64,000 nt of DNA, from positions 295,551 to 359,550 of the forward strand of contig CP070813.1 in assembly GCA_020344055.1 (NCBI GenBank), given 5' to 3'. The notes under the pieces were generated by a model, which was given only the letters and a program-made list of their open reading frames with translations, did not search any database and was not told the origin of the DNA. Origin of the DNA: Candidatus Zixiibacteriota bacterium (GTDB taxonomy: Bacteria; Zixibacteria; MSB-5A5; UBA10806). This document shows positions 12,625 to 55,446 of the stretch, one piece after another (position 1 is the first letter of the stretch; each line of letters opens with the position of its first letter). A program made the position numbers and the translations under genes.

Positions 12625-13506
12625 CTATCTGGTCTGCAGGAGCTGATCCTCGGGTATCTGCTTGATATCGAGGCCCTTCATGGCCAGACCGAGCGATTTC
12701 GACGCTTCCGCCACGATTTTCGGGTCGCTGTAATGAGTGGTGGCGAGCACAATGGCTTTGGCGCGTCTTTTCGGATCGGATGATTTAAAGATGCCGGAGC
12801 CGACGAACACCGATTCGGCCCCCAGCTGCATCATCAGCGAGGCATCGGCGGGGGTGGCGATACCTCCCGCGGCGAAATTCGGCACCGGCAGTTTGCCGTG
12901 CTCCTTGACATATTTTACCAGCTCGTGGGGGGCCCCGAGGTTTTTAGCCTCGGTCATAAGCTCTTCATCGTCGAGAGTGGTTATCCGTCTTATCGCGCCC
13001 ACCACGGCTCTCATATGCCGCACGGCCTCAACGATATTACCGGAACCGGCTTCACCTTTAGTGCGTAAAAGCGCCGCTCCCTCGCCGATTCTGCGAAGCG
13101 CCTCGCCAAGATTGCGACATCCGCATACAAATGGGATCTTAAATTTCGTCTTATCGATATGATTGTGCTCGTCGGCGGGCGTAAGCACCTCGGACTCGTC
13201 GATGAAATCGACCTCCAGCGCCTCCAGCACCTGCGCCTCGGCGAAATGCCCGATCCTGGTTTTGGCCATCACAGGTATCGATACCGCCGCCTTGATCTGC
13301 TCGATTATGGTCGGATCGGCCATGCGGGCCACCCCGCCGTCCGCGCGTATATCTGCCGGCACTCTCTCCAGAGCCATCACCGCGCACCCTCCAGAATCCT
13401 CGGCGATCCTCGCCTGCTCGGCGTTGGTGACATCCATGATCACTCCGCCCTTCAACATCTCCGCCAGCCCCACCTTTACCTTAAATTCTTTATCGTTAAT
13501 AAACAT
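12625..13506 (-). CDS. pdxS: Pyridoxal 5'-phosphate synthase lyase subunit
   Basis: [35 protein letters not shown]...GVARMADP is highly conserved PdxS sequence. Confidence 0.92.
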
Positions 13507-14078
13507 AACGCACCTCTCTTTTCAGCCTCCGCAGAGGAAAATCCCCCTGCCGAGTATTTATATCCAGCATAAAAAGATAAGTTTGCGAAATACGGTTGTC
13601 AATATTTTTGGATGGCATCATGGACACCCGTTTACATTCTTGGAGGCGATGGGATGTGGGTAGGCCGCAGGCAGTCGGAAGCCCGGTTTACCGTCGAATA
13701 GCCCTGATCGCGACTGGAAAAGGTATCTTTGCGCTCGATATCACCCCGTAATAACCCCGACCTTACAGCCGGGGTGTAATACTGAAAAAAAACCTTGACA
13801 GAGCTTTAAAATGGATTATTTTGTTCACAATTGCTACTTTGATTATGCCTCATTGATTGTCTTCGGGAATTCAATATTGCGCTTTGACTGAAATGAATCC
13901 CTGCGAAAAAAATGAAAATCAGGATTATTCCGATCTCGTTGTCAATGCCGTCGGCTGCGGTATTTTCTCTAAAAGAATGGGGATACTGTTCGGCCATATA
14001 TTAATCCTGTAACTGGTCGGGAGCCAATGCTCGGGGATTTAAAAAAAATCATAACATTATAAAGATAAGGAGGTAATC

Positions 14079-15371
14079 TTGAAACTGGCAGTTTTAGCTT
14101 TGTTGGGGAGTGTATTATTTATTTTCACCAGTGTTTCATTAGCCCAGGCGCCGGATACCTTCTGGACAAGGATATATGGCGGGACATTCACTGACTGCGG
14201 TTATTCGGTTCAACAGACCTCTGACGGCGGATACATCATTGCCGGATATACGGAGTGCTTCGGTGCAGGTTTGGCGGATGTCTGGCTTATAAAGGCAGAT
14301 AACATCGGCGACACCCTCTGGGCGAGGACATACGGGGGACAAAATATCGATATTGGATATTCAGCTGACATTACTTCCGACGGCGGATTCATTATTGCAG
14401 GGCAAACGCAATCCTTCGGCGCGGGTGGTTCGGATGTTTATCTTATAAAGACAGATGCCAGCGGCGATACTCTGTGGACAAAAACATATGGAGGAACCGG
14501 TAATGACATCGGCTGGTCGGTTGAACAAACCTCTGATGGTGGATATATCATTGCCGGAAACACAACTTCGTTCGGTGCGGGCTCTAATGACGTCTGGCTT
14601 ATAAAAACAGATTCCAACGGGGATACGGCCTGGACAAAGACCTACGGGGGAGCAGATTCCGATGGAGGACGTTCTGTTCAGCAGACCTCTGACGGCGGAT
14701 ACATCATTACCGGAACCACATGGTCATTCGGCCCGGGTGAATATGATATTTACCTGATAAAGACAGACTCCTCCGGCGATACGCTCTGGACCCGGGCATA
14801 TGGCAGTGCGCTTTATGACTACGGTTATTCCGTCGATGTTACCTCCGATAGTGGATACATAGTCGCGGGATGCTGGCAAACGACGGTCCATCCTTACGAC
14901 AATAAGGCGGCTTATCTGATTAAGACGGATACCGGCGGCGATACTCTCTGGACGAAGATCATACCCTTTCCATGGCCGTATGTCACGGAAGAGGCTTTCT
15001 CGGTTCAGCAGACCTCCGATGACGGGTATATCGTCGGCGGGTACTCAGATCCGTACTATGGGCAGTCCAATTATGCTCTTCTTGTTAAAACGGATTCCGC
15101 CGGTGATACGCTCTGGGTAAGGAGATTTCGACTTGTCGACCAACCTTATCAACACCATGCATTTTATTCTGTTCAGCAGACCGCTGACGGCGGATATGTC
15201 GCCGTCGGGTATGGAAGGGGTTGGGATCTTTATTTCCTGAGAGGAGCCTATTTCCCCACCATCCCCACCCTCTCCGAATGGGGTATTCTCATAATGGGGT
15301 TGCTGCTGCTGGCTGTCGGAACAGCGGCCATTGTCAGAAGAAGGAGAACGGAATCGAGAGTACTGAATTAA
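14079..15371 (+). CDS. Secreted tandem-repeat (~47 aa x8, beta-propeller-like) protein with a C-terminal IPTL-CTERM sorting domain
   Basis: TTG start with RBS aaggagg 8 nt upstream. Signal peptide MKLAVLALLGSVLFIFTSVSLAQA. Repeats W(T/A)(R/K)TYGG..D.G.SV.QTSDGGYIIAG.T.SFGAG..DV(W/Y)LIKTD..GDTLW. C-terminal IPTLSEWGILIMGLLLLAVGTAAIVRRRR (15261-15368). Confidence 0.75.
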   Translation: MKLAVLALLGSVLFIFTSVSLAQAPDTFWTRIYGGTFTDCGYSVQQTSDGGYIIAGYTECFGAGLADVWLIKADNIGDTLWARTYGGQNIDIGYSADITSDGGFIIAGQTQSFGAGGSDVYLIKTDASGDTLWTKTYGGTGNDIGWSVEQTSDGGYIIAGNTTSFGAGSNDVWLIKTDSNGDTAWTKTYGGADSDGGRSVQQTSDGGYIITGTTWSFGPGEYDIYLIKTDSSGDTLWTRAYGSALYDYGYSVDVTSDSGYIVAGCWQTTVHPYDNKAAYLIKTDTGGDTLWTKIIPFPWPYVTEEAFSVQQTSDDGYIVGGYSDPYYGQSNYALLVKTDSAGDTLWVRRFRLVDQPYQHHAFYSVQQTADGGYVAVGYGRGWDLYFLRGAYFPTIPTLSEWGILIMGLLLLAVGTAAIVRRRRTESRVLN

Positions 15372-15603: not shown

Positions 15604-15675
15604 TACAGAAGACGGCTTGCCGAATATTGAATAGCTCAGCTTCGCTTTAAAACTGCTGCTTTGCGGAGGCTGGTT

Positions 15676-17088
15676 GTGCGCAATAGATTAATATTATACG
15701 GCCTTATTATTGCTTGCATGCCCCTGACATTATGGGCTGCGGTCATCCATGTCCCCGGCGATTGCCCCGCCATCCAGGCGGCGGTCGATTCCTGTGCCGG
15801 AGGCGATACGGTCATGGTCGCGCCCGGAGTTTATTCCGGCGATGGCAACCGTGATATATCCATCTTGGCAATATCTATTACCGTCATCAGTTCCGATGGC
15901 CCGCTGTGGACTATTATCGACGGTGGGAACGGCTATAAAGGCTTCAATATAATCGGTGGCGGGGCGCCTGCCACCGTCATAGAGGGCTTTACCATCCAAA
16001 ACGTCTCCTACGGGGTTTACTGCGATTCCGCTTCCGTTGTCATGAATAACGTCATCATCGAGGATTTCCTGTTCCGGGCGATTCACTTCGACGGTTTTTT
16101 ATACGACCCGCCGTTAACAGCCGATATCGATGAGTGTATAATTCACCAGATAGATCCATCATACCAGGGGACCGGCATAGGCTTCCGCGGAGCCCGGAGC
16201 GTTATCGTGTCGGTATACGGATCTATATTCAGCGATTGCCTTTACGGTTTCGAATTTCATACCCTTGAAAATCGGGTTCCCAATTTCGATATCCAAAAAT
16301 GCGTCGTTAGAAACAATCTGCTCGACGGTATCTGGACTCATTCGTGACACCAGCTTTCGCCGGCGGGTTCGGCGCAATACTGTAATTTCTCGGGCAACGA
16401 CAACTACGATATCCGCGCCGAGGCCTGCAGCGATCCCAACACCGTTATCGACGGCCGCTACAACTTCTGGGTCCGGACCGATTCGGCCAGCATAGCCGAT
16501 AGCTGCATCTTCGATCATCTTGACGATCCCGAGGCCCCCACAGTCGATTTCATGCCTTTCCTGTCCCAGCCGGGCGTGGCCGTTATCGCCGGCGTCGTTA
16601 CCGACGATTCGCTGAACCCCATCGACGCGGTGATAGTGCACGTCGAGGGGCAGATATTCTCCGACACCACCGATATAAACGGCGAATATATGATTGCCGG
16701 GCTGCAGATGGGGTATTGCGATATCTCGTTTTCGCATGACCTTTATGATGACTCCGTGGTTACCGGCCTGTTCGCCGTGATACGCGACACCGCCGTTGTC
16801 GACATGGTCCTCTTCGAATGTACCGCGGACAATTACGTGGTCGGCGACGTTAACGAGAGCGGCGACTACAACGGCCTCGATATAATTTACGGGGTCGCCT
16901 ATTTCAAAGGCGGCGACCCCCCGCCATTTCGATGCATCTGCCCGCCCCACGGGGTCTGGCATCTGGCCGGCGACGTCAACGCCAGCTGCAGCTACAACGG
17001 CCTCGATATTACCTACGGGGTCAACTACCTCAAAGGGATAATCCCGGAACGGCTCCCCTGCCCCGACTGCCCGCCGATCGGGTCGTAG
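15676..17088 (+). pseudogene. Secreted right-handed beta-helix (pectate-lyase-like PbH1) + CarboxypepD_reg-like + dockerin-like-tail protein, interrupted by one in-frame TGA (16345-16347)
   Basis: ORFs 15661..16347 and 16552..17088 are in the same frame. Manual translation across the single TGA is continuous and sensible (...DGIWTHS*HQLSPAGSAQYCNFSGNDNYDIRAEACSDPNTVIDGRYNFWVRTDS...). N-terminal AVIHVPGDCPAIQAAVDSCAGGDTVMVAPGVYSG is the classic PbH1 start. C-terminal CTADNYVVGDVNESGDYNGLDIIYGVAYFKGG...CPDCPPIGS tail. Confidence 0.6.
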
Positions 17089-17138
17089 GCGGTCGGTTCA
17101 TCCGGCCGCGCATAAACCCCTTGACACCTTCTACTGAG

Positions 17139-17291
17139 CCGTCAGGAATCCTTTCCTGACGGTTTAAGACCACCTCAATTGTCATTCCCGAAATCGCTAA
17201 TCGGGAATCTATTATGGGCCAGTTGCAGTAGGTCGAAAGGCTTGCCTTTCGACAACCAGAGTGTCGAAACCATAAAGGTTTCGACCTACTG
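17139..17291. repeat. Cluster of short structured repeat modules: GTCAGG...CCTGACGGTTTA hairpin, attcccga...tcgggaat hairpin, and a 66-nt double hairpin
   Basis: GTCAGGaatcctttCCTGAC (17139-17160); gtcATTCCCGAaatcgctaaTCGGGAATc; cagtaggtcgaaaggcttgcctttcgacaaccagagtgtcgaaaccataaaggtttcgacctactg (17226-17291) holds two perfect hairpins (10-bp and 9-bp stems) plus an outer inverted repeat. The same modules recur at 18523-18680 in a different order. Confidence 0.6.
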
Positions 17292-17296
17292 CCTTC

Positions 17297-17500
17297 CCGC
17301 GTCCGTAGGCGGTCGGTTCATCCGGCCGCGGCCAAGTAGCGATCACGAATGCAAATTCGACAATCCACTTGACAGCAAGTTAAAATGGATTATCTTATAC
17401 ACACAACACGTTCGGCCTACTTTGATCGACTGCAAGGCTGAAATTGGATACGACGAGTTAGCGCCTTTGGATAGACAAACAGATTCAACGGAGGTCTGAG
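17297..17500 (+). promoter_or_regulatory. Conserved ~200-nt promoter/5' leader module shared with the 19007 gene
   Basis: Starts GTAGGCGGTCGGTTCATCCGGCCGCG (near-palindromic hairpin), then ...GCAAATTCGACAATCCACTTGACAGCAAG with a TTGACA -35-like hexamer at 17369-17374, then a conserved RBS region aacGGAGGtctgagGTG. It aligns with 18812-19006 along its whole length; a 27-nt identical fragment also sits at 17085-17111. Confidence 0.5.
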
Positions 17501-18514
17501 GTGAAGAGAGTTATTTCGTATTTTTCCAGATTGATTTTTATAGCTTGCCCCTTACTCGTATTTGTTTTTTCAAATGCCCGCCCAACGGAAAGGATGGTAT
17601 TAGGGGAGTTTTTTAATAATACAGGATGTCCCTACTGTCCTCCGGCAAGCCAGGTTTTGGACCAGTTAGTACAGAATTATGATTCAAACTTCGTTTCAAT
17701 CAGGTATCACATATGGTGGCCATTCTCAAACGATCCTTTCTGGCTGTACAATCAAGGCGAAATCGAGATAAGAAAAATTTACTATAATATTAGTTCCGTG
17801 CCACGTTGTTTTTTTGATGGATCTATTGATGGGGGCGGCGCCTACGGGAATTGGGAGACAATAGTCCAGGATCGAATCTTAGTTGACTCGCCGCTGGACA
17901 TCAGATCTTTTGCAGCTTTTGATAGCGTTTCTTTAACCGGCGATTTAAATATATATGTTATCGCGACGTCTAATATTTCGCAATCCGATTTAAAATTGAG
18001 AATCGCCATTACGGAAAATAACCTGGATTATGGCGGCAGTACATATAATCAGGTTTTCAGGGATATGATTCCGAGTACTGAAGGGATACCTTTTATTATA
18101 ACGGAGGGAGATACGGTAGAGTTTTTTGAGCAATATAGCTGCCCCGCGCCTTTGATTTATCAAAATTGTGAAATTGTCGTTTTTGTACAATCCGATGTTG
18201 ACAGGGAAATACTTCAGTGTAATAGGATAAAAATCCCGGAGGATCTGGTGGCGTGCAACTACGTAGTTGGGGATATCAACGGCAGCGACAGCTATAATGG
18301 TCTCGATGTAACCTACGGCGTGGCCTACCTCAAGGGCGGCAGCCCACCGCCGTTCTCCTGCGAATGTCCCCCGCACGGCGCCTGGTACGTGGCCGGCGAC
18401 GTTAACGCCAGCTGCAATTACAACGGTTTGGATATTACCTACGGCGTTAATTACCTCAAGGGGGTAATACCCATACTGCTCCCCTGCCCCGACTGCCCGC
18501 CGTCAGGGGAGTAA
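17501..18514 (+). CDS. Secreted thioredoxin/glutaredoxin-like (CPYC motif) protein with a dockerin-like Cys-containing C-terminal tail
   Basis: GTG start with GGAGG 8 nt upstream; signal peptide. VLGEFFNNTGCPYCPPASQVLDQLVQNY has a thioredoxin-fold beta-alpha layout with a CxxC. C-terminal CNYVVGDINGSDSYNGLDVTYGVAYLKGG...CECPP...GDVNASCNYNGLDITYGVNYLKG...PCPDCPPSGE (18254-18511). Confidence 0.6.
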   Translation: MKRVISYFSRLIFIACPLLVFVFSNARPTERMVLGEFFNNTGCPYCPPASQVLDQLVQNYDSNFVSIRYHIWWPFSNDPFWLYNQGEIEIRKIYYNISSVPRCFFDGSIDGGGAYGNWETIVQDRILVDSPLDIRSFAAFDSVSLTGDLNIYVIATSNISQSDLKLRIAITENNLDYGGSTYNQVFRDMIPSTEGIPFIITEGDTVEFFEQYSCPAPLIYQNCEIVVFVQSDVDREILQCNRIKIPEDLVACNYVVGDINGSDSYNGLDVTYGVAYLKGGSPPPFSCECPPHGAWYVAGDVNASCNYNGLDITYGVNYLKGVIPILLPCPDCPPSGE

Positions 18515-18522
18515 ATGCGTTA

Positions 18523-18680
18523 CAGTAGGTCGAAAGGCTTGCCTTTCGACAATCCGAGTGTCGAAACCATAAAGGTTTCGACCTACGCAACTGCCCGCCG
18601 GTGGGGCCGTAACAACCCATGCGCCGTCATGAATCCGATCCTGACGGTTTATTGTGTCATTCCTGCGAAAGCAGGAATCC
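18523..18680. repeat. Second copy of the structured repeat modules (double hairpin, GTCA(t)G..CCTGACGGTTTA, attcctgc-gaaa-gcaggaat hairpin)
   Basis: cagtaggtcgaaaggcttgcctttcgacaatccgagtgtcgaaaccataaaggtttcgacctac (18523-18586) is near-identical to 17226-17289. Followed by cctgacggttta and gtcATTCCTGCgaaaGCAGGAATcc. Confidence 0.6.
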
Positions 18681-18754
18681 ATAAAGAAAGGCCATTATGG
18701 ATGCCGGATCAAGTCCGGCACGACGATAAGATGATCTGAGATTAATTGTTTATT

Positions 18755-18797
18755 TAATTATATCCGTATCTTTTCTAGCTCCGCCTCCCCCGCCTAC
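18755..18797. repeat. 45-bp direct repeat copy A; a fragment identical to the 3' end plus stop of the PP-loop gene at 21563
   Basis: TTAATTATATCCGTATCTTTTCTAGCTCCGCCTCCCCCGCC. On the minus strand it would encode ...GEAELEKIRI*, matching the C-terminus of the 21563..22573 protein. Pairs with 21553-21597. Confidence 0.7.
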
Positions 18798-18811
18798 GCT
18801 ATCTGCTGGCT

Positions 18812-19006
18812 GTAGGCGATCGGTTCATCCGGCGGCGAGCAGGTAACGATAATGAACGCAAATTCGAAAATTCACTTGACAGCAATCTATTATCAATTAA
18901 CTTATAGCAGCAACGAAACTTGCCCGCTTTGATCAACTGCGTATTTGAGATGAAGACATTGGCAGAAAGCCTAAAAATAGATAAATAGATTCATCGGGGG
19001 TCTGAG
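18812..19006 (+). promoter_or_regulatory. Second copy of the conserved promoter/5' leader module
   Basis: GTAGGCGATCGGTTCATCCGGCGGCG...GCAAATTCGAAAATTCACTTGACAGCAAT (TTGACA at 18876-18881) ... ttcatcGGGGGtctgagATG. Alignable to 17297-17500, with more divergence in the 3' half. Confidence 0.5.
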
Positions 19007-21427
19007 ATGATGAGGATTTTAGTTTCCGGTTTTTCATTATTTTTCTTAATGATATCGTTACCTACATCCATCAGCAATACGCAGTCCACACTTGACGAAG
19101 ATCCGCAAGAGCACCAGGCAATGACAAATCTATTTTCTTTACCATTTTACTTTACAGAAAATCTTGGACAATGGGGAGAAAAAACGCTTTTCAAAACCGA
19201 GACCGTTGGAGCATCTTTCTATTTTTGTAAAGACGAAGTGGCATATCTATTTGTAAGGAAAACGGACGAATTAATGGATGAGGATTCTTCCATCCGCAAA
19301 ATGATGGGAATGGATGATAAATTTTATAGGCCGCCGTATAAGAAAGAAGCCGTTCTCGTGAAAGTTCAGTTTTTGAATGCCAATCCCAATCCCGAAGTCA
19401 TTGGTATTGATCGTTTGTCTCACAATAATAATTACTTTTATGGCAACGATCCTTCATTGTGGCAAACGAATGCACGTAATTATTCGGCAATTGCATACAA
19501 GGATATATACGCTGGAATCGATCTAAAATATCGCGCCAATGGCAGATCGATGAAGTATGATTTTATTGTCAATCCCGGTGCTGATTATTCGCAAATTCGG
19601 CTTCGCTTTGACGGTATAGAGGATTTAAGTGTCACAGCCACAGGCGATTTGCTGATAGAAACGTCACTTAACCCAGTTTACGAAAAGGCTCCTTCCATTT
19701 ATCAGGAAATCAAGGGAGAAAAACGGGAAATATCAGGCCGATATAATGTAACGGAGCCGGGAATCCTTAGTTTTGCTTTGGAAGAAGAATTTAATCCTCA
19801 TTATCCATTAATTATTGATCCAGAACTACTCTTCAGCACATATCTTGGAGGATCCGATGCAGATGAGATGTTCGAAATAGCTCTCGATACAGATAACGAT
19901 GTCTATGTTTGTGGCATTAGCGATTCCTATGATTTTCCGCTCCTCAATCCCTACGATAGCACAGTTAACGGCAATGACGCGGTAGTTTCAAAATTCGCAT
20001 CGTCAGGGGAAACGCTATTATATAGCACTTTCATAGGCGGTGGGCAATCCGACGTAGCTTATGATATAACGGTTGACCTTAACGGTAATGCGTATGTTAC
20101 CGGTATAGCTTATTCGTCCAATTTTCCGGTTATAAATGGTTATGATGAGATTTTCGATGGTGGCGCCGATGCATTCGTACTTAAATTATCAAGAGAAGGC
20201 GATTCTCTAGAGTATAGTACATTTCTGGGAGGAGGTGGCGGAGAGGTCGGTCGTGGTATCTGCCTAGATTATGAAAATAACGCATACATTACAGGCTACA
20301 CGAACTCTTCGGATTTCCCCATCGTTAATGCATATGATGAATACCTGGGAGGGATTGACGATGTTTTTATAACAAAATTATCATCGTTCGGGAATAGCCT
20401 TATATATAGCACTTACCTTGGTGGATCATCGGATGAACAGGCCCGCGGTATCGATGTTGATTCCGAAGGAAACGCATTTGTAACTGGATATACATCCTCT
20501 TCAGATTTTCCTGTGGTTAACGCATATGATGATAGCTATAACGGAAATATCGACGTATTTGTAAGTGGATTATGGCAGACGGGCGATTCACTCATATATA
20601 GTACTTATATAGGTGGAAGTGACGAAGATAGGGGCGCCGGAGTGGTTGTTGATATAAACGGTAATACGTATATAACCGGAACTACGCTCTCTTCGGATTT
20701 TCCAACTATACAAGCTTTGGACAGTAGCTACAATGGCGATCTGGACGGTTTTGTGTGCAAAATGCCACCTATTGGCAATTCTATAACATATAGTTCTTAT
20801 TTTGGTGGATCTGGAGATGATGGAGGTACGGATATTTGCGTAGATATATGTGAAAATGTATATATTACCGGAGGAACGTTCTCGCCTGATTTTCCGACAT
20901 TTAATGCATATGATTCCACCTACAATAATTGGCATGATGTATTCGTTATCAAACTATTCTCGACAGGAAACATCATTATATATAGCACTCTTTTAGGCGG
21001 AGGCTTTAGAGAGATCGCATATGGTATCAGCATCGATTCGGCAGGAAGCGCATATATTACGGGATATACCATGTCTTCAGATTTTCCGCTCGTCAATCCC
21101 TGTTTTGGAAATTTCGCCGGTTCATTTGATGCGTTTGTGGCCAAATTTGGGCCAAGTTTGGATACGGTTTGCATTTATGTAATTGGCGATGTTAATGCCA
21201 GCGGTGATTACAATTCTCTCGATATATCATTTGGAGTAACATATTTCAAGGGCGGCGAATTTCCGATTTGCGAACCTTGTTGGCTATGTAGTGATTGGTA
21301 CTATTGCGGTGATGTCAACGGTAGCTGTAATTATAATGGGCTGGATATTACGTATGGTGTCAGGTATCTTAAAGATGAACTACCAGAACTAATCCCTTGT
21401 CCCGACTGCCAACTAACGATGCAGTAG
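19007..21427 (+). CDS. Secreted SBBP-type beta-propeller repeat protein with a dockerin-like Cys-containing C-terminal tail
   Basis: Signal peptide MMRILVSGFSLFFLMISLPTS. Repeated units YSTFLGG...D.g.GI.vD..GNAYvTG.T.SSDFP..NAYD (x8-9) follow the SBBP pattern. C-terminal CIYVIGDVNASGDYNSLDISFGVTYFKGG...CGDVNGSCNYNGLDITYGVRYLK...PCPDCQLTMQ (21170-21424). By eye this gene is lower in GC than its neighbours. Confidence 0.7.
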   Translation: MMRILVSGFSLFFLMISLPTSISNTQSTLDEDPQEHQAMTNLFSLPFYFTENLGQWGEKTLFKTETVGASFYFCKDEVAYLFVRKTDELMDEDSSIRKMMGMDDKFYRPPYKKEAVLVKVQFLNANPNPEVIGIDRLSHNNNYFYGNDPSLWQTNARNYSAIAYKDIYAGIDLKYRANGRSMKYDFIVNPGADYSQIRLRFDGIEDLSVTATGDLLIETSLNPVYEKAPSIYQEIKGEKREISGRYNVTEPGILSFALEEEFNPHYPLIIDPELLFSTYLGGSDADEMFEIALDTDNDVYVCGISDSYDFPLLNPYDSTVNGNDAVVSKFASSGETLLYSTFIGGGQSDVAYDITVDLNGNAYVTGIAYSSNFPVINGYDEIFDGGADAFVLKLSREGDSLEYSTFLGGGGGEVGRGICLDYENNAYITGYTNSSDFPIVNAYDEYLGGIDDVFITKLSSFGNSLIYSTYLGGSSDEQARGIDVDSEGNAFVTGYTSSSDFPVVNAYDDSYNGNIDVFVSGLWQTGDSLIYSTYIGGSDEDRGAGVVVDINGNTYITGTTLSSDFPTIQALDSSYNGDLDGFVCKMPPIGNSITYSSYFGGSGDDGGTDICVDICENVYITGGTFSPDFPTFNAYDSTYNNWHDVFVIKLFSTGNIIIYSTLLGGGFREIAYGISIDSAGSAYITGYTMSSDFPLVNPCFGNFAGSFDAFVAKFGPSLDTVCIYVIGDVNASGDYNSLDISFGVTYFKGGEFPICEPCWLCSDWYYCGDVNGSCNYNGLDITYGVRYLKDELPELIPCPDCQLTMQ

Positions 21428-21552
21428 GGTGCGTTATTGTTATTTCTGCATTATCAAAGATCCCCAAAGGCAAAGCATGGATCTGAATCGAAAATCCATA
21501 ATGAATCCCCAATCAGTTTTAGTATGACAATAGAACAATATTAGATTTATTA

Positions 21553-21597
21553 TTAATTTTAATTATATCCGTATCTTTTCCAGCTCCGCCTCCCCCG
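21553..21597. repeat. 45-bp direct repeat copy B; the genuine 3' end of the PP-loop ATPase gene
   Basis: TTAATTATATCCGTATCTTTTCCAGCTCCGCCTCCCCCGCC; one mismatch to 18755-18797. Confidence 0.7.
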
Positions 21598-22573
21598 CCG
21601 GAGCGGTCTCCAGGGCCCCGTCACCGTTCCGGGCGACATAGGTTACTCGCAGAAGCGGTTCGTTTTTGCCGTCGCAGTAGCGCGCTACCACCGAGGCGGC
21701 GGTCTTCATGACCGTCTCATCGGCCTCCCCCCGCAATAGCCCGATCGGGGAGCCGAACTCCAGAACCTCCATTATGCAATCGTCCGGCCGCCGCAGCGAT
21801 TCGATCAGATCGTTTTCCCGTTCATCCCGCCCCACCACCAGCTTGACCCTGTCGCTCAACCGGAAATGCCGTCCTACCCTGAGCAGGTTCAGGTCGTTGA
21901 AATCGGGATCGGGATCGTATTTCAGAAGATCGCGCAGGCGGTCCGAATAACGTTCGTCGGTGAGCAGGCATCCGGCGGCGGGGTTGGGATATTCGGATAG
22001 GCCGAACTGTTCGGCCAGCGCCATCTGGCGTTTGCGGGAACGTCCCTCGATATCCAGAAGCCACTCCCTTTGTATCAGCCCCTCTTTTTCCGGTACGGTG
22101 GGGGGGAGGAGCCTGCCGCAAAGCGGCCGCACCAGCCGCCCCTCCAGGCCGCAGTTCTTGGCGATCAGGTCAAGTGTGAAACGCCTCTGCGACATGGGCC
22201 GTTGACCCAGCACCTCGCCGGTTATCACGAACTGCCCGCCGGTAAGCTCCATGTAATCCCTTGCCTCGGCCAGCATCACCAGCCGGCAGTCGATGCAGGG
22301 GTTCATGTTTCTGCCGCGCCCGTAACGGGGATTTTTCACGATATCGATGAATTTCTGCCCCAGGTGTGCCAGCTTCACCCTGAAGCCGAACTTTTCGGCG
22401 GCAGGGTAGGGGTCGTGCCCGCAGGTCGATCTGTCGGAGGCGTCGCAGCCGAAATGGGTCATGAAGGTTATCGCCTCCACCTCCACGCCGTATTTCATCA
22501 TCTGCAGTATCGCCAGCGTGGAATCCAGGCCGCCGGAATACAACGCTGCCGCCTTTACCTTGATTTTGCTCAC
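21563..22573 (-). CDS. PP-loop ATPase (adenine nucleotide alpha-hydrolase superfamily); ThiI/MnmA-like putative tRNA sulfurtransferase lacking a THUMP domain
   Basis: PP-loop SGGLDS near the N-terminus (KAAALYSGGLDSTLAIL). NPCIDCRL and ITGEVLGQRPMSQR resemble ThiI/MnmA-type motifs. ~120-aa C-terminal extension. Exact function uncertain. Confidence 0.5.
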   Translation of the reverse strand: MSKIKVKAAALYSGGLDSTLAILQMMKYGVEVEAITFMTHFGCDASDRSTCGHDPYPAAEKFGFRVKLAHLGQKFIDIVKNPRYGRGRNMNPCIDCRLVMLAEARDYMELTGGQFVITGEVLGQRPMSQRRFTLDLIAKNCGLEGRLVRPLCGRLLPPTVPEKEGLIQREWLLDIEGRSRKRQMALAEQFGLSEYPNPAAGCLLTDERYSDRLRDLLKYDPDPDFNDLNLLRVGRHFRLSDRVKLVVGRDERENDLIESLRRPDDCIMEVLEFGSPIGLLRGEADETVMKTAASVVARYCDGKNEPLLRVTYVARNGDGALETAPAGEAELEKIRI

Positions 22574-27394: not shown

Positions 27395-27482
27395 GTAGGT
27401 CGGAAGCCCCGCCGAAGGCGGGGCGCTTCCGACGTCAGGATTAATAAGTTTTTTTGTCTGGAGCCGGGGGCTCCCGACCTAC
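27395..27482 (-). other. Structured RNA-like element in the lipB leader: outer stem GTAGGTCGG/CCGACCTAC enclosing two GC-rich hairpins
   Basis: gtaggtcgg [GAAGCCCCGCC-gaa-GGCGGGGCGCTTC] cgacgtcaggattaataagtttttttgtct [GGAGCC-ggg-GGCTCC] ccgacctac. It lies between the ferredoxin terminator and the lipB start, so it is transcribed with lipB on the minus strand. Confidence 0.35.
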
Positions 27483-38387: not shown

Positions 38388-38611
38388 CGCAAACCTGATA
38401 CTCCAGCTTCCTCTCTTCTGCAATCCATTCGGATCCTTTTTCAAAAAAAAGCGGCAATTTTCGCTATTATGGTAAAGAACCGCGACTTTTTTTATTCGTT
38501 CCCGAAAATTGCAATTTGGGGATTGTTTTTTACGGGAAAAAAATTGTATTATTAACGCATGTATCCACATCTCGCAGTCAAATTGGAATAGAGCAATAAC
38601 GCGGAGGGAAA

Positions 38612-40114
38612 ATGAAAATAGATAGAAGGGAATTCTTAAAATCCACCGCAGCCATATCGGCGGGAGCTGCTCTTTATCCCGGCATTATGAGCATCCTTTC
38701 CGGTAGCGGTTGTTCACCGGGCGTAAGAAGGGATCTCGATGAAGATCAAATAGCGGCCATTCTCGAAAAGGGATTGTCGAAGGGAGGGGATTTCTCGGAA
38801 GTTTACATAGAGGAAATCTCGTCTACCTCTTTTGATATGTCCGAGGGCTCGTTTGCCAGAGCGACGGTGGGCGTTTCTCAGGGAATCGGTGTCAGGACTG
38901 CGGAAGGACCTAAGAACGGCTACGCCTATATTAACGGATTCGATTATCGGGAGGCCATGGCGGCCGCCGAGGCATCGGCTTACATATCGGCGTCCGGTGA
39001 AATGGGCGAGGTTGCCTCTCCTGCGAAAAAGTCGCCTGCGGGATATATAACTATCGAAGTCCCGGTGAGCGATGTCGCCGAAACCGTGAAAATGGATTTG
39101 ATTCAAAGCGCCGAACAGGCCGGCCGCGATTTCAGCCCCCTCGTGAAACAGGTGGATATCGAGTATTACGACCATATGAAAAGACGCAAGATAGCCAACT
39201 CCAACGGGCTGAGGATCGAAAACGAAATTCCCCTGATCTGGGTGGTGATAAACGTCCTGGCCGAGAAAAATGGCGTACGCCACCGGGGACGTAAGCGTCT
39301 GTCCGCCCACCAGGGTTTTGAATTTTTCGAGCTAATAGATCTGGAGGAAGCGGCACGAGCCGCCGCCAACGAGGCGGTGACCATGCTGGAGGCCAGACCG
39401 GCGCCGTCGGGGAAAATGCCGGTGGTGTTGTATCCCGGCTGGGGCGGCGTGCTGATGCATGAGGCCGTCGGTCACGGGCTCGAGGGTGACGCGGTGTTCC
39501 GGGGCGCCTCCATATTCGCCGGGAAAATTGGGGAGAAGGTCGCGTCCGACCTGGTCACGCTGGTTGACGACTCCTCCTGGCCCAACGCCCGCGGCACCAC
39601 CGATTTCGACGATGAAGGAACGCCGGGACAAAGAAATGTCCTCATCGAAAACGGTATCTTGAAAGGTTATATGCACGATCTTATTTCGGCCAGACTCCTT
39701 AACGCCTCGCCCACCGGAAATGGAAGGAGAGAGTCTTATAGACATTTCCCGATTCCCAGGATGACCAATACCTTTCTCGAAAATGGAAACGCGAAACGGG
39801 AAGACATAATCGCAGAGACCGCAAGCGGGCTGTTCGTAAAGGCTCTTTCGGGAGGTTCCGTGGATACCACAACGGGCGAATTCAATTTCGAGGTCCGGGA
39901 GGCGTATCTGATAGAAAACGGGAAAATTACATCTCCCGTCTCGGGAGCATCTCTGATCGGAAAGGGTATCGATGTATTAAGCAATATAGACGCTATCGCA
40001 GGCGACCTCGAACTGGGTGTCGGTATCTGCGGCAAGGGCCAGTGGGTGCCGGTAACGTCCGGGCAACCGACCGCCAGGGTTGCCACCGGAATAACTGTCG
40101 GCGGGACGGCGTAG
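38612..40114 (+). CDS. tldD: TldD-family metalloprotease with a twin-arginine (Tat) signal peptide
   Basis: MKIDRREFLKSTAAISAGAALYP (RREFLK Tat motif); PmbA_TldD fold with HEAVGHGLEGD. RBS gcggaggg. Confidence 0.85.
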   Translation: MKIDRREFLKSTAAISAGAALYPGIMSILSGSGCSPGVRRDLDEDQIAAILEKGLSKGGDFSEVYIEEISSTSFDMSEGSFARATVGVSQGIGVRTAEGPKNGYAYINGFDYREAMAAAEASAYISASGEMGEVASPAKKSPAGYITIEVPVSDVAETVKMDLIQSAEQAGRDFSPLVKQVDIEYYDHMKRRKIANSNGLRIENEIPLIWVVINVLAEKNGVRHRGRKRLSAHQGFEFFELIDLEEAARAAANEAVTMLEARPAPSGKMPVVLYPGWGGVLMHEAVGHGLEGDAVFRGASIFAGKIGEKVASDLVTLVDDSSWPNARGTTDFDDEGTPGQRNVLIENGILKGYMHDLISARLLNASPTGNGRRESYRHFPIPRMTNTFLENGNAKREDIIAETASGLFVKALSGGSVDTTTGEFNFEVREAYLIENGKITSPVSGASLIGKGIDVLSNIDAIAGDLELGVGICGKGQWVPVTSGQPTARVATGITVGGTA

Positions 40115-40123
40115 GAGGGTAAA

Positions 40124-41449
40124 ATGGAATTTACGGAAAAAATTCTCGATAAATGCCTGGACGCCGGGGCGGATTCGGCGGAGGTTTTCAGCCTGAATCA
40201 GAAAAAGCTGTCTTTGACCGTGCGGGAAGGTCGGCTGGAGACGATTCAGAAATCGACCCCGGGCGGGCTGGCGGTAAGATTCTTTAAGGACAACAAGACC
40301 GCCTTCGCTCATACCACCGATCTCTCCGAAAAATCGGTAAATGAAATGGTCCGGACTACAAAGAATATGGCGGCGAAAACCGAGCCCGACGAGCTCGCCG
40401 TTCTTCCCGATCCCGGGCAGTACGGGAGAGATCTCGATATATTTGACGACAGCCGCGCCAATATTCCCACGGAAGCGAAGATCGCCTACCTCGTCAATCT
40501 CGAGAAGCTCGCCATGGATTACGATATTCTGATCGACAAATCCAAAGGCGCCTGGTGCTCGGAGGTGCTGTCGGAGATCGAGCTTTTAAACTCCAACGGC
40601 ATCAAATCGATTTATAAATCTTCGCATTATAACGTTGGTATATCGGTAATAGCCTCGAAGAACGGGAATATGTTTCCGGGGGAGGGTTTTATAAGCGCAA
40701 GGCATTTCAGCGATCTGCTCCCGGCGGAAAAGATAGTCGACAGATATGTATCCAGGGCGCTGAGATTGGTGGGCGGTACGCCGGTATCCGGCGGCGATTA
40801 TGAAATCATCTTTACGCCCTATGTCCCCTACACCATAATGTGGGGTTTGGGTTTCGCGCTGAACGGAGAAAACGCGCTTAAGGGAACTTCGTTTCTGGCG
40901 GGCAAAAAAGGTGAGGCTTTTGCCGACAGTAAGTTGAATGTGTACGATGACGCCATCAAACCGCGCGGTGTCTCCAGCCGCCCCGCCGATCACGAAGGTG
41001 TTCCATCTCAAAATAATAAGCTGGTCGAAAACGGCGTTCTCACCGGATACCTGTATGATACCAGGACCGCCGCCAGGGCCGGGGAAAAATCAACCGGTTC
41101 GGCCATAAGGGACGATTACAACGCCAATCCTGAAATTTCGCCCAGCAATTTTTATATCGCGCCGGGCGATGATAAGACCGATGATGTGATCAAATCCTGC
41201 AAAAAAGGGATAATGGTCGAAGCGGTTCACGGCTGGGGCTTAAATAGCGTAAACGGGCAGTATTCAGCCGGCATAAACGGTATACTGGTGAGGAACGGTA
41301 AAATGGTAAAACCGGTTGCCAATGTGACCGTGGCGGCAAACGCCGAAGATTTTTTCAAGGGGATCGGCGCGGTTTGCGATGATATCACCTTTTACCATGG
41401 ATTCAGTTTGCCTACTATAATGATTAAAAAGATGAAGGTAGGCGCCTGA
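40124..41449 (+). CDS. pmbA: PmbA/TldE-family protein (TldD partner) with no signal peptide
   Basis: Typical PmbA_TldD family length and sequence; starts 10 nt after the tldD stop. Confidence 0.8.
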   Translation: MEFTEKILDKCLDAGADSAEVFSLNQKKLSLTVREGRLETIQKSTPGGLAVRFFKDNKTAFAHTTDLSEKSVNEMVRTTKNMAAKTEPDELAVLPDPGQYGRDLDIFDDSRANIPTEAKIAYLVNLEKLAMDYDILIDKSKGAWCSEVLSEIELLNSNGIKSIYKSSHYNVGISVIASKNGNMFPGEGFISARHFSDLLPAEKIVDRYVSRALRLVGGTPVSGGDYEIIFTPYVPYTIMWGLGFALNGENALKGTSFLAGKKGEAFADSKLNVYDDAIKPRGVSSRPADHEGVPSQNNKLVENGVLTGYLYDTRTAARAGEKSTGSAIRDDYNANPEISPSNFYIAPGDDKTDDVIKSCKKGIMVEAVHGWGLNSVNGQYSAGINGILVRNGKMVKPVANVTVAANAEDFFKGIGAVCDDITFYHGFSLPTIMIKKMKVGA

Positions 41450-41790: not shown

Positions 41791-41974
41791 GCGCATCTGA
41801 ATTCCGCAGTTCGAGCATCCATATTTTCATTGTATAACAAAAAAACCTTGCAATTATAACAACCTTTACTATTTTGTTTATGCCCGTTTCACGTCTTCAG
41901 GGGTCGGAAGCAAACCGAAAAATGAGGAAGGAATATCGAAAGCGCAGTCTAACTTATTTTGCCGGAGGTAGTTC

Positions 41975-43396
41975 ATGAAGAGGTTTGGTATTACGATTAT
42001 GTTTATTTTTTCGGCGGTATCATATACCGGGGCGCAGGATACGCTCTGGACCGGCCATTATGGCCTTATTGACACCACTGAATTGGGCTATTGCGGGGAT
42101 ATTACATCTGATGGAGGGTTTATCGTGGGAGGCGAGTCGAGCAAATTTCTTAACGGGGATATGTGGCTGGTTCGTTGCGATGCAAACGGCGATACTCTAT
42201 GGACTCGTAATTACGGCGCCGCGAGGTGGCAAATGGCCTATTCCGTTATTCAGACGTCAGATGAAGGCTTTATCGCCTGCGGCGAATATAGCGTGGCCGT
42301 GGGTGATTATGATATGTACGTGGTTCGAGTCGACCCCGCGGGCGATACCCTGTGGACTCGCCTGTTCGGGACCGTGGATCAGAATGATTATGGAAGAGAA
42401 ATTATTCAGACCTCCGATGGAGGTTTCCTGGCGCTGGGTCAAGGATATGGTACCAGCGGCTCCAGCGACCTCTATATGGCCAAAATAGATGAATCCGGAA
42501 ATCTGACCTGGAGCAAAACATACGGTTATAGCGGCGGTAGCGAATACGGCTATGGAGCGGTGCAGTTGCCTGACGACGGATATGCGATTGCCGGAAGCTA
42601 TGCCTATTTGTCAACCTCGGATCTCTGGCTTTTGAGAACCGATTCCAACGGGGACACTCTGTGGACCGAGAGATTTGATTTTCATGGTGATGTAGATCGA
42701 GGGGATGATATCGAGATAGCCGACGACGGTGGATTTGTAATTGCCGGGAGGACGAAAAATGCCGGAAACATGCGCCTTTTAACCATGAAAACCGATTCGC
42801 TCGGAAATATGCTCTGGTGGCGCGAATATGGTAGCTCCAGTTCCGATTTCGCCGAATCGATCGATAAAACCTCGGATGGCGGCTTTGTTATCTGCGGCGG
42901 AGCTAACGCTTATCCCTTTGATTTCTTTGTTGTTCGTATAAGCGCCATCGGTGACTCCCTTTGGGCCGGTATATATGATTATGATGGAATACCAGGAGAT
43001 TCCGATGATTCCTTCGAGGTAAGAGTCCATCCAAATGGAGATATAATGGTGTTCGGCTACGCCGACGTCAAAACCGGCACCGGCGCCGACAACGACTTCT
43101 GGGTTGTTAAAATACATGATGGCGCCCTTCAGCAACCGGGTTGCGAGTACGCTGTGGGCGACGCCAACAACAGCGGCAGCCTTAACGGCCTGGATGTCAC
43201 CTATGGCGTGGCCTTTTTCAAGGGAGGCCCCATGCCTCCGTACGAGTGCGAATGCACGCCGGGGAACACCTGGTTTGTGGCCGGCGACGTTAACGCCTCC
43301 TGCTCCTATAACGGCCTTGATATAACATATCTGGTGAATTACTTTAAAGGCGGATCGGATGTCGAACCGTGCGCCGACTGTCCGCCGGCCGGTTAA
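41975..43396 (+). CDS. Secreted beta-propeller-like tandem-repeat protein with a dockerin-like Cys-containing C-terminal tail (paralog of 14079 and 43415)
   Basis: Signal peptide MKRFGITIMFIFSAVSYTGAQ. Repeats WTR.YG...TSDGGF...G...DMWLVR.D.NGDTLW. Tail CEYAVGDANNSGSLNGLDVTYGVAFFKGG..CECTP...GDVNASCSYNGLDITYLVNYFKGG..PCADCPPAG (43142-43393). Confidence 0.75.
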   Translation: MKRFGITIMFIFSAVSYTGAQDTLWTGHYGLIDTTELGYCGDITSDGGFIVGGESSKFLNGDMWLVRCDANGDTLWTRNYGAARWQMAYSVIQTSDEGFIACGEYSVAVGDYDMYVVRVDPAGDTLWTRLFGTVDQNDYGREIIQTSDGGFLALGQGYGTSGSSDLYMAKIDESGNLTWSKTYGYSGGSEYGYGAVQLPDDGYAIAGSYAYLSTSDLWLLRTDSNGDTLWTERFDFHGDVDRGDDIEIADDGGFVIAGRTKNAGNMRLLTMKTDSLGNMLWWREYGSSSSDFAESIDKTSDGGFVICGGANAYPFDFFVVRISAIGDSLWAGIYDYDGIPGDSDDSFEVRVHPNGDIMVFGYADVKTGTGADNDFWVVKIHDGALQQPGCEYAVGDANNSGSLNGLDVTYGVAFFKGGPMPPYECECTPGNTWFVAGDVNASCSYNGLDITYLVNYFKGGSDVEPCADCPPAG

Positions 43397-43414
43397 ACAC
43401 TGATAGAATAGTTT

Positions 43415-44875
43415 GTGGCGGAGTATAAAATGAAAAAATCTGTATTTCTGGCAATCGCGTTCTCGCTTTTTGTCTCAAACGCTCTCGTGGCGCAGGATAG
43501 TCTCTGGAGCAGGTTTTACGGGCATACCGGAAATGGAGGAGTTTTTGACAGCGATCGCGGAATGTGCGGAACTGTCGCCTCGGATGGGGGTTATGCTATC
43601 GGAGGCGTTTCTTACGCGTTCCAGGGGCTGCTGTCCGAATTCTGGCTGGTTAGAACTGACTCAAACGGGGATACACTCTGGACAAGAAATTACGGGACCG
43701 TCGGATTTGAAGAAGCTCATTATCTGATCCAGACCGATGACGGCGGGTACGTATTATGCGGCGACACCAAACCCTCGGGAGGAAATTATAATTTATATAT
43801 AGTCAGAACCGATTCGCTGGGCGATACCCTCTGGACCCGGAGTTTCGGTTCGCCCGCCGGCGACGATAAAGGATGGGCTATTGTCCAGACCGATGACGGC
43901 GGATTTCTGGCGGTCGGCCACGGGTACGGGTCCGGCTGGGATGTTTATATGGTCAGGTTGAATGAATCCGGAGACTCTTTATGGTCGAAAAAATATGGCG
44001 GAAGCCATCCGGATGCCGCCTACGGAGTCACGCAAACGGCCGACGGCGGTTTTGCCCTGGTCGGGCAGTATGCCAACGATGACTTTGGCGATACCGATCT
44101 GTGGTTATTACGCGTCGATTCTCTGGGCGATACTCTCTGGACCCGGAAATACAGCTACAGCGGCGGATGGTCTCGAGGTGAAGCTATCGCGAAAACCTCC
44201 GACGGAGGGTTCGTTATCGCCGGTCAAAACTGGCTGACACTGACCAATGTTGTGATGCTTCTGGTTCGTACCGATTCCCTGGGCAACGAAATCTGGCATA
44301 AAGAATACGGAGGCCCCAATATCGATAACGCCATGTCGCTCGATATCACCTCCGACGGCGGAATTGTTGCCGGGGGACAAACCGATTCCTTCGGTGGCGG
44401 CAACAAAGATTTTTACATTGTCAGGACCGATTCGAGCGGTGATTCTCTTTGGTCAGCGGTTTTCGGCCATAACGGAATCGATTATTGCCACGAAATCAGG
44501 GTCGATCCGTCCGGCGATATAATGGCTTTCGGCCAGCACCATATATACGGCAGCCAGGATTTCGACTACTGGATGATAAAGATAGCCGACAGTACCGCGC
44601 AAAGTGGATGCGAGTATGTCGTCGGCGATGTCAATGACAGCGACAGCTATAACGGTCTTGATATCACTTATGGGGTCAACTTCTTCAAGGGCGGTTCCGA
44701 TCCGATGTGTCCTTTCGGTTCCTGTTCTATTTCTCCTTGCGACACGTTTTTCTACTGCGGAGATGTCAATGGCAGCTGTTCGTATAATGGCTTAGATATT
44801 ACCTACGGGGTTGCGTATTTCAAAAGCGGTCCCGATCCGATTCCCTGCCCCGATTGCCCGCCGACGGGCGATTAA
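43415..44875 (+). CDS. Secreted beta-propeller-like tandem-repeat protein with a dockerin-like Cys-containing C-terminal tail
   Basis: Signal peptide MKKSVFLAIAFSLFVSNALVAQ. Same repeat family. Tail CEYVVGDVNDSDSYNGLDITYGVNFFKGG..CGDVNGSCSYNGLDITYGVAYFKSG..PCPDCPPTGD (44609-44872). Confidence 0.75.
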   Translation: MAEYKMKKSVFLAIAFSLFVSNALVAQDSLWSRFYGHTGNGGVFDSDRGMCGTVASDGGYAIGGVSYAFQGLLSEFWLVRTDSNGDTLWTRNYGTVGFEEAHYLIQTDDGGYVLCGDTKPSGGNYNLYIVRTDSLGDTLWTRSFGSPAGDDKGWAIVQTDDGGFLAVGHGYGSGWDVYMVRLNESGDSLWSKKYGGSHPDAAYGVTQTADGGFALVGQYANDDFGDTDLWLLRVDSLGDTLWTRKYSYSGGWSRGEAIAKTSDGGFVIAGQNWLTLTNVVMLLVRTDSLGNEIWHKEYGGPNIDNAMSLDITSDGGIVAGGQTDSFGGGNKDFYIVRTDSSGDSLWSAVFGHNGIDYCHEIRVDPSGDIMAFGQHHIYGSQDFDYWMIKIADSTAQSGCEYVVGDVNDSDSYNGLDITYGVNFFKGGSDPMCPFGSCSISPCDTFFYCGDVNGSCSYNGLDITYGVAYFKSGPDPIPCPDCPPTGD

Positions 44876-45017
44876 AACCTTGACAACCTTTTAGATATCA
44901 GTATCTTAAATATATCATCGCGCGCTGTCATCTTTGAAAAATTATTATGTCAATATCGGGTGGGGGATTATTAAGATTCATAGGAAAATAAGTGTTTTAA
45001 AGGGTCGGAGGTGTGTG

Positions 45018-55268: not shown

Positions 55269-55446
55269 TAAAAACTTGCATTTTGATCCGTCGAAAACAA
55301 TATTGAGACGTCTACGGGAATTTCTTTTGGGGGCTTGTCCTGCCCGTTTAAGGGCCTGGCGTTTGAAAAGTTACTTAAATCTGACCGCAGATGTTTTTTG
55401 GATTTGAGATCTCAATTAATATGACCATTAAAAATGGAGAACCAAA

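Follow-up and report, generated by a model that had tools for sequence, protein, structure and literature searches.

Two alignable leaders upstream of dockerin-tailed secreted-protein genes in a Zixibacteria genome and their probable origin by an old segmental duplication

Three consecutive tail-bearing genes and their upstream regions

A 64-kb stretch of DNA from Candidatus Zixiibacteriota bacterium (contig CP070813.1, positions 295,551 to 359,550; the whole stretch is referred to here as the window, and coordinates are counted from its first nucleotide) contains three consecutive genes on the forward strand, namely, gene 1 (15661-17088), gene 2 (17501-18514) and gene 3 (19007-21427), each ending in a cysteine-rich, dockerin-like tail of about 86 amino acids (aa). 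Upstream of gene 2, and likewise of gene 3, lies a leader of some 200 nucleotides (nt). A preliminary description of this region had taken the arrangement to mean that the family expands through cassette-like duplication of promoter and leader together with the tail, and that its members are co-regulated, possibly through a structured 5' untranslated region (UTR). The analysis presented here points instead to the two leaders probably being paralogous copies of an ordinary promoter, an unstructured UTR and a ribosome-binding-site block, stemming from an old segmental duplication in which the cargo was replaced.

The locus is bordered on the left by the conserved housekeeping genes pdxS (12625-13521, minus strand), ispH and ispG, and on the right by a gene assigned by Pfam as thiI-like/NFACT-R_2 (21563-22573, minus strand), followed by an Rrf2 regulator gene and queG. 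The position of the thiI-like gene as the right border is supported by synteny with the sister genome bin38, a complete chromosome (CP070742.1; locus L005) that is syntenic around this region and in which gene 1 and the thiI-like gene are 79 and 83% identical to their counterparts in the window, respectively. Relatives of the leader were obtained from three further populations, represented by loci L006-L009, L010-L012 and L013, while homologues of gene 3 were considered at loci L014 and L015.

Gene 2, previously described as glutaredoxin-like, proved to match the Omp28 family (Pfam PF11551) and to contain a CPYC motif; its GTG start codon aligns with ATG in the orthologues. These are 79-80% (L006-L009) and 72-74% (L010-L012) identical to gene 2, and the L013 orthologue is a longer Omp28-like protein carrying a classical dockerin. 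The gene is chimeric in composition, with a body of about 40% GC and a tail of about 60% GC, which suggests a GC-rich source for the tail, with gene 1 being one such possible donor. Gene 3, which encodes a DUF7948 domain and SBBP beta-propeller repeats, is about 40% GC along its full length, and its homologues elsewhere share at most about 57% amino-acid identity with it.

A repeat-family search of the window placed the ends of all three genes in one family of homologous segments of about 260 nt (16825-17087, 18251-18513 and 21167-21424), in agreement with the tail-sharing originally noted. Six such tail modules exist in the window (16825-17085, 18251-18511, 21167-21424, 43139-43396, 44606-44875 and 47571-47825), showing pairwise nucleotide identities of 53-75%. 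Two subtypes are distinguished by the motifs PPPYxCxCPPHG and PMCPxCxLCxDW, with subtype A tails being found in genes 1, 2 and 41972-43396, and subtype B tails in genes 3, 43412-44875 and 44910-47825. The tails of genes 2 and 3 thus differ in subtype, and are 61% identical at the nucleotide level.

When compared using nhmmer, the two leaders (17298-17500 and 18805-19006) aligned end to end over about 200 nt, as had been claimed, with the 5' 74 nt being 85% identical (blastn E 1e-12). Between about -160 and +12, 117/172 positions are identical, a value that drops to 35/66 in the neutral part. From 5' to 3', leader 1 comprises a hairpin (hairpin H, GTAGGCGGTCGGTTCATCCGGCCGC) lying upstream of the -35 box, an A/T-rich stretch, a promoter, a UTR of about 95 nt, the block ATAGAYAAAYARATTCAWCGGRGGTYTGAG that holds a GGAGG Shine-Dalgarno site and, lastly, the start codon. 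The predicted sigma-70-type promoter of gene 2 (17369-17396, plus strand) consists of the TTGACA hexamer reported earlier (17369-17374), a 16-nt spacer and TATCTT (17391-17396). The predicted promoter of gene 3 (18876-18903, plus strand), which is aligned with that of gene 2, contains TTGACA (18876-18881), again a 16-nt spacer, and TAACTT. The predicted UTRs would extend over 17403-17500 and 18910-19006 on the plus strand, each including the conserved context of the ribosome-binding site that had also been remarked upon. This takes the form of a 29-nt block (17471-17499, plus strand, ATAGACAAACAGATTCAACGGAGGTCTGA; 18977-19005 in leader 2), which occurs twice in the window, where no copy is expected by chance. 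Conservation of the block carries on into the first codons. No conserved upstream open reading frame (ORF) was found in the leader, the sole short ATG-initiated ORF of leader 1 starting inside the -10 region and being absent from leader 2.

A diverged third copy of the promoter (TTGACA-16-TATTTT; 13795-13822, plus strand), having TTAAAATGGATTAT in common with leader 1, sits upstream of a gene at 14079-15371. At L006, the promoter orthologous to this copy directly follows the tail of gene 2 and hairpin H. The 14079-15371 gene encodes a repeat protein containing seven repeats of about 52 aa and an IPTL-CTERM sorting signal, and is missing from the same position in bin38, L017 and L018.

Folding and conservation of the leader

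Across five leaders from four populations, the promoter hexamers are preserved (TTGACA, TTGACC, TTGACG or TTGATA, together with TATCTT or TAACTT) amid variable surroundings. When the window was compared with L006, the middle of the UTR was 67% identical, as were 4-fold degenerate sites (67%), while in the comparison with L010, both values were 48%. The middle of the UTR is, therefore, as diverged as 4-fold degenerate sites and so evolves neutrally. In the same comparisons, the promoter was 72-75% identical and the ribosome-binding-site block 78-90%.

The possibility that the leader serves as a dedicated cis-regulatory RNA, be it riboswitch-like or an attenuator, that co-regulates the dockerin-tailed secreted proteins draws on the fact that alignable leaders of such length precede two secreted-protein genes, on the strong conservation of the 30 nt ahead of the start codon in five sequences and on a 7-bp hairpin within which, in 4/5 sequences, the Shine-Dalgarno site and the start codon could lie. 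Yet, the four UTRs considered folded no better than did dinucleotide shuffles (z +0.54, +1.10, +1.41 and -0.25), and RNAalifold returned only -3.8 kcal/mol for four leaders and -4.8 kcal/mol for five, with zero compensatory pairs in either case, such that aligning and folding the leaders yielded no covariation-supported structure. The consensus contained 10 pairs with a positive covariation term, limited to a 3-bp helix and the 7-bp helix, the latter of which never varies and is broken in gene 2 of the window. A search of Rfam 15 at the gathering score revealed nothing in the window, and relaxing the threshold to E<=10 for positions 16300-19100 gave only chance-level matches. Given folding at the level of shuffles, the lack of compensatory pairs and the lack of an Rfam match, it was concluded that the leader contains no riboswitch-like element. 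The neutral rate of the UTR middle and the presence of the leader on only 2/6 tail-bearing genes of the window likewise speak against a cis-regulatory RNA, a reading that now appears very improbable. Riboswitch and attenuator classes were accordingly rejected for the leader, which displays no excess stability, covariation, constraint over the whole element or Rfam match. As such, a large structured element is already largely refuted, and the structured 5' UTR of the preliminary description is not upheld.

The ribosome-binding-site block could be simply a strong translation-initiation region or else the binding site of a regulator. In the second case, ATAGAYAAAYARATTCAWCGGRGGTYTGAG together with ATGATGAGG would be bound by a translational regulator, such as a CsrA-type protein or a small RNA, and post-transcriptional control would be common to the Omp28-like genes and to gene 3, which captured the block. 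CsrA-type proteins recognise GGA in a hairpin loop, and the predicted hairpin presents GGAGG in its loop. Moreover, the block retains its high identity where neutral sites have fallen to 48-67%, and its two occurrences in the window exceed the chance expectation of zero. Against this, the stem never varies and hence offers no covariation, the hairpin is disrupted in gene 2 of the window, and the candidate regulators are only hypothetical. Strong conservation is, furthermore, common in the translation-initiation regions of highly expressed genes, and an exact-pattern scan of metagenome contigs with the block turned up a copy at only one further locus. A translational operator is thus considered unlikely.

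The other cluster of tails in the window (41972-47825) comprises three contiguous genes lying behind a different upstream region. Because the leader is found on so few of the tail-bearing genes, shared regulation is plausible for genes 2 and 3 only, which may be co-regulated by virtue of carrying the same predicted promoter and ribosome-binding-site block. The co-regulation originally proposed for the tail family as a whole does not extend beyond this pair, and the regions upstream of gene 3 homologues in other genomes are unrelated to the leader.

Duplicated flanks, promoter capture and variability of the locus

The coding bodies of genes 2 and 3 are unrelated, one being Omp28-like and the other DUF7948-SBBP, while both of their flanks are homologous. 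The shared 5' flank corresponds to the leader and reaches at least the first 12 coding nt. On the 3' side, which the preliminary description had missed, positions 18668-18809 (plus strand) duplicate a segment now found at 21472-21614, which comprises intergenic DNA and the final 57 nt of the thiI-like gene. Specifically, 18668-18794 and 21472-21599 share 97/130 identical positions (75%), with an alignment score of 91 versus a shuffle maximum of 26, and the relic of the thiI-like gene, covering 57 nt of its 3' end (18753-18809), is 86% identical to 21558-21614. Judged from sequence, the whole slot underwent segmental duplication, the signature of which is the junction at about 18810, where this relic meets hairpin H and the leader.

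Among relatives, the leader is present upstream of the gene 2 orthologues at L006-L009, L010-L012 and L013, and absent upstream of the gene 3 homologues at L014 and L015. In addition, the first 12 coding nt of gene 3 (ATGATGAGGATT) are those of the Omp28-like genes at L006 and L013. Together, these findings argue that the leader originally belonged to the Omp28-like gene, with gene 3 having captured it. Given the extent of leader divergence (117/172 identical overall and 35/66 in the neutral part), the event was old, and the two leaders are not the simple recent duplication remnant that had been put forward as the alternative outcome. Since the tails of genes 2 and 3 belong to different subtypes, the tail was not recently co-duplicated with the leader. 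Accordingly, the part of the original proposal in which promoter and leader were copied as a unit stands, with the 3' flank now added, and the part in which the tail travelled with them does not. Sliding identity was used to ask whether recombination of a subtype B tail with that of gene 2 had produced the gene 3 tail, and revealed no clear breakpoint.

The sequence of events that would best account for these observations begins with an upstream region originally belonging to gene 2, the Omp28-like one. The whole slot would then have been copied in an old segmental duplication, including the 5' hairpin, promoter, UTR and start, as well as, on the 3' side, the intergenic DNA that follows the tail and the 57-nt 3' end of the convergent thiI-like gene. 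One copy of the slot would subsequently have taken on an unrelated cargo, namely, the DUF7948-SBBP gene 3, which would since have been driven by the captured promoter and translation-initiation region of the Omp28 gene. The GTAG-headed hairpin would mark the old junction between tail and promoter.

This scheme resembles tandem segmental duplication with promoter capture in that both flanks are directly repeated and a relic of the 3' end of a neighbouring gene lies between the copies, and it resembles promoter capture systems in that the downstream copy would be driven by a duplicated promoter and translation-initiation region. It differs from plain tandem duplication, since the coding bodies are unrelated, which requires either that the cargo was replaced or that two alleles bearing different cargo were illegitimately joined, and from recent tandem duplication, given that the copies are old, being about 68% identical.

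Several points weigh against an old duplication of an ordinary promoter and UTR. The predicted transcription start and the exclusion of the hairpin from the mRNA rest on a consensus promoter match together with phylogenetic footprinting. Conservation of the ribosome-binding-site block far exceeds the requirements of a Shine-Dalgarno site. Hairpin H is 100% identical across loci whose genes are only 79% identical, implying selection or mobility. The neutral part of the leaders is more diverged than the duplicated 3' flank (35/66 versus 75%), such that the two flanks may stem from separate events or may have experienced partial gene conversion. Finally, the leader count covers the 64-kb window, and further copies may exist elsewhere in the source chromosome.

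In every relative examined, the genes lying between pdxS and the thiI-like gene are different. In the window, the 14079-15371 gene is followed by genes 1, 2 and 3. In bin38, the order is pdxS, gene 1, an AT-rich integrase island containing a tyrosine recombinase and the thiI-like gene. At L006, pdxS is followed by gene 2 and a 14079-type gene, and at L017 and L018, gene 1 adjoins pdxS. The AT-rich island of bin38 (L005 1950-3870) replaces genes 2 and 3, and at L010, the gene 2 orthologue has an integrase gene (L010 53-1006) 1.5 kb upstream. All this fits the interval being a recombination-prone surface-protein locus.

A more elaborate version of this idea is that the interval functions as an exchange slot, in which the leader provides the 5' homology arm and the tail and downstream flank the 3' arm, allowing strains to exchange surface-protein cargo through homologous recombination, with REP-like elements marking or promoting the junctions. 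Such exchange would account for homologous flanks around unrelated gene bodies, for the variable gene content and order, for the compositional chimerism of gene 2, for the alternative C-terminal modules (dockerin-like, type IX secretion system (T9SS) C-terminal domain or IPTL-CTERM) carried by homologous passengers across genomes, and for the integrases adjoining the locus in bin38 and L010. At the same time, only a single, old duplicated pair is seen, with no evidence of ongoing exchange; the tails of the pair differ in subtype without a clear recombination breakpoint; and the two integrases are generic tyrosine recombinases that are only 27% identical to each other. Because one old duplication and one replacement suffice to explain the data, cassette exchange is quite unlikely. 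Much the same low probability attaches to the broader notion of a dedicated Zixibacteria surface-protein exchange slot whose block also serves as a shared translational operator. What survives of the cassette-like expansion initially envisaged is the existence of homologous slots with unrelated cargo, and not a leader that accompanies the family at large. An integron gene cassette was also considered and rejected, as each gene has its own conserved promoter, the hairpin is without the GTTRRRY core of attC and the integrases found nearby in relatives are unrelated, being of the generic kind already described.

Intergenic palindromes, gene 1 and the C-terminal module

Hairpin H takes the form GTAG-GCGGTCGG-TTCAT-CCGGCCGC, with a GC-rich stem of 8-9 bp and a TTCAT loop, and folds at -16.3 kcal/mol (z about -2.1 to -2.2). 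GTAGGCGGTCGGTTCATCCGGCCGCG is found at 17085 and 17305, and at 18812 with two mismatches, when none is expected by chance. In copy 1 (17085-17110, plus strand), which had escaped the preliminary description, the stop codon of gene 1, TAG, is formed by the GTAG head. Copies 2 (17305-17330) and 3 (18812-18837), both on the plus strand, lie at the 5' edges of leaders 1 and 2, respectively, with copy 3 having a stem weakened by its mismatches (-13.7 kcal/mol, z -1.5). The near-palindrome previously placed in each leader is, therefore, real, although its position 39 nt upstream of the -35 box puts it outside the predicted mRNA of the downstream gene.

At the bin38 position orthologous to copy 1, 25/25 nt are identical. 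H supplies the stop codon of gene 1 in both the window and bin38, and that of gene 2 at L006. When a genome collection that did not include the source genome was scanned with the hairpin, exact copies were found at five loci of three Zixibacteria genomes, following unrelated genes. At L002 and L004, for instance, the stop codon of an SDR-type gene precedes H by 20-40 nt. In L006, L010 and L013, the orthologous leaders contain either a degenerate H or none. The junction of tail, H and promoter is itself conserved, being seen behind gene 1 in the window and in both bin38 and L018, as well as behind gene 2 at L006. Intrinsic (Rho-independent) termination was considered as a role for H and rejected, since no T run follows any copy and a terminator scan found none there; lacking a U tract, H is not a canonical intrinsic terminator. 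H is best read as a REP-like stem-loop at the 3' end of the preceding tail-bearing gene, as judged by its placement, rather than as leader RNA.

The repetitive extragenic palindromes (REPs) of Proteobacteria, along with the related bacterial interspersed mosaic elements (BIMEs) and REPINs, have a GTAG head and are handled by RAYT transposases. Like REP elements, H combines GTAG with an imperfect GC-rich palindrome at the extragenic 3' ends of genes, and its copies are found in unrelated loci and genomes. Unlike REP elements, H apparently has a low copy number, with one exact copy in the complete bin38 chromosome and three copies in the window.

Three further palindromic elements were noted in this region. 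Hairpin S (17139-17162, plus strand, CCGTCAGGAATCCTTTCCTGACGG) is a repeated intergenic palindrome with a second copy at 18624-18647; the segments 17138-17166 and 18623-18651 are 90% identical, and the element also occurs at L003. Hairpin R (17181-17209, plus strand, GTCATTCCCGAAATCGCTAATCGGGAATC) is likewise repeated (18656-18680), with 17180-17209 being 90% identical to L006 479-508. The 68-nt element M (copy 1, 17222-17289, plus strand) consists of two inverted GTAG-headed hairpins and thereby resembles a REP doublet, or REPIN. Copy 2 (18519-18586), which is 96% identical to copy 1, is contained in an 87-nt insertion (18503-18589, plus strand) in the 3' end of gene 2, situated between 11-nt direct repeats, ACTGCCCGCCG (18492-18502 and 18590-18600). 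The former end of gene 2, including its TAA, persists at 18590-18612, with 18590-18611 being 95% identical to the intact gene 2 end at L006 (1734-1755), and the insertion turned the last residues of the protein from VGP* into SGE*. A remnant resembling a tail end also follows the copy at 17222-17289. These observations suggest that element M is a small mobile element with a preference for tail-end sequences. IS200/IS605-type mobilisation does not produce flanking direct repeats, and in this respect, the element M insertion with its 11-nt repeat differs from such mobilisation.

Elsewhere in the window, an intergenic GTAG-headed GC-rich hairpin, GTAGGTCGGGAGCCCCCGGCTCCAGAC (27456-27482, minus strand), has a form related to that of element M. 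As a class, GTAG-headed hairpins are not enriched in the window (11 versus about 16 in shuffles, using permissive criteria), and only the specific repeated elements stand out among them.

Gene 1 encodes, in order, a signal peptide, a parallel beta-helix, a CarboxypepD_reg domain and the dockerin-like tail, with an in-frame TGA (16345-16347) located between the beta-helix and CarboxypepD_reg parts. The start at 16552 assumed in the preliminary description is, in fact, the first ATG after that TGA and so internal to the gene. Public annotation similarly splits the gene at the UGA into a 223-aa protein and a second ORF. The N-terminal beta-helix part has nine orthologues (38-77% identity), all of which are annotated as 222-223 residues long and, therefore, all stop at the gene 1 TGA codon. 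In the four orthologues for which DNA was available, TGA occupies the same alignment column, and in orthologues, the frame remains open for about 245 codons past it, through CarboxypepD_reg to the tail. Copies containing the in-frame TGA are found at L005 491-1900, L017 1986 to the contig end and L018 1587-2990. In the 68 codons after the TGA, differences pile up at third codon positions (e.g., 4/4/15 and 12/15/24), showing that coding constraint continues downstream. The codon context is W(T/A)HS-U-HQxSP, also given as WTHS-U-HQxSPAGS, and 10 nt after the UGA, a hairpin is found in four sequences, with four one-sided compatible changes, none that break a pair and none that are compensatory. 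This candidate selenocysteine insertion sequence (SECIS) hairpin was without an Rfam match at E<=10 in 16300-19100. No homologue reading through with cysteine was found among 16 matches, no tRNA genes were found within the window, and a literature search on Zixibacteria and selenocysteine yielded nothing relevant. Based on the pattern of conservation, the TGA is probably, and most simply, a selenocysteine codon, in which case gene 1 would be an unrecognised secreted selenoprotein combining a beta-helix, a CarboxypepD_reg domain and a dockerin-like tail; programmed read-through would be the other option.

In two other places in the window, a pair of long ORFs abut in one frame with a single stop in between, namely, 38600-41449 (TAG, 40112-40114) and 55432-59850 (TAA, 57643-57645). 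These pairs could be adjacent genes or interrupted genes.

To characterize the C-terminal module, the gene 2 tail, which served as the first row in an alignment of 28 tails, was modelled using AlphaFold. In a Foldseek comparison of the resulting model (predicted local distance difference test score 92.5) with the PDB, ranks 1-28 were all dockerins (probability 0.95-1.00), with the best superpositions showing target-normalised TM-scores of 0.80-0.88 and a root-mean-square deviation of about 2 A, and all significant fold matches were type I dockerins. A profile search of PDB sequences likewise returned only dockerins (E 0.01-0.9). At the sequence level, the three tails score 16.3-19.8 bits against Pfam PF00404 and so lie below the gathering score of 22.9, while Dockerin_1 gave weak matches in 26/28 members of the tail family (best E 7.8e-5). 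The model comparisons thus confirm a predicted type I dockerin fold of duplicated loop-helix units. Like type I dockerins (PF00404), the tail has two loop-helix repeats with the signature GDxNxxGxxNxxD. Unlike classical dockerins, it has six conserved cysteines, a cysteine-rich beta-hairpin linker of about 20 aa and a terminal PCPDCPP motif, and, in more than 1,000 protein clusters whose passenger domains vary widely, it occupies the extreme C-terminus.

Indeed, a search with the tail profile identified 1,160 protein clusters at E<=1e-10, comprising proteins of 100 to 3,600 residues, in which the tail is nearly always at the extreme C-terminus, sometimes with about 30 more residues beyond it. 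In other genomes, the tail is replaced in homologues of genes 2 and 3 by either a T9SS C-terminal domain or IPTL-CTERM. It may be inferred that the tail serves as an interchangeable anchoring or sorting module. As a small conserved unit found at the C-terminus of numerous unrelated secreted passengers, it is like the T9SS Por_Secre_tail, IPTL-CTERM and PEP-CTERM domains; it is unlike these sorting domains in having a dockerin fold, its own sorting role being a suggested one. A literature search on Zixibacteria and dockerins found nothing relevant.

Taken as originally posed, the finding of duplicated regulatory leaders matters little and is mostly ordinary, and a candidate new structured leader RNA can be removed from the list. 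The analysis does provide a usable picture of Zixibacteria promoters, in the form of TTGACA-16-TATCTT followed by a GGAGG Shine-Dalgarno site, and documents a large family of dockerin-fold, cysteine-rich C-terminal modules whose behaviour suggests a tag for sorting or anchoring. It also corrects the gene model of gene 1 and thereby points to a probable unrecognised family of secreted selenoproteins. Were the exchange slot to be true, unrelated passenger genes could be exchanged and would find a promoter and ribosome-binding-site block already in place for their expression. With the old duplication and cargo replacement as the probable history, the locus would show how a secreted-protein gene in an uncultured phylum gained the promoter and translation-initiation region of its neighbour.

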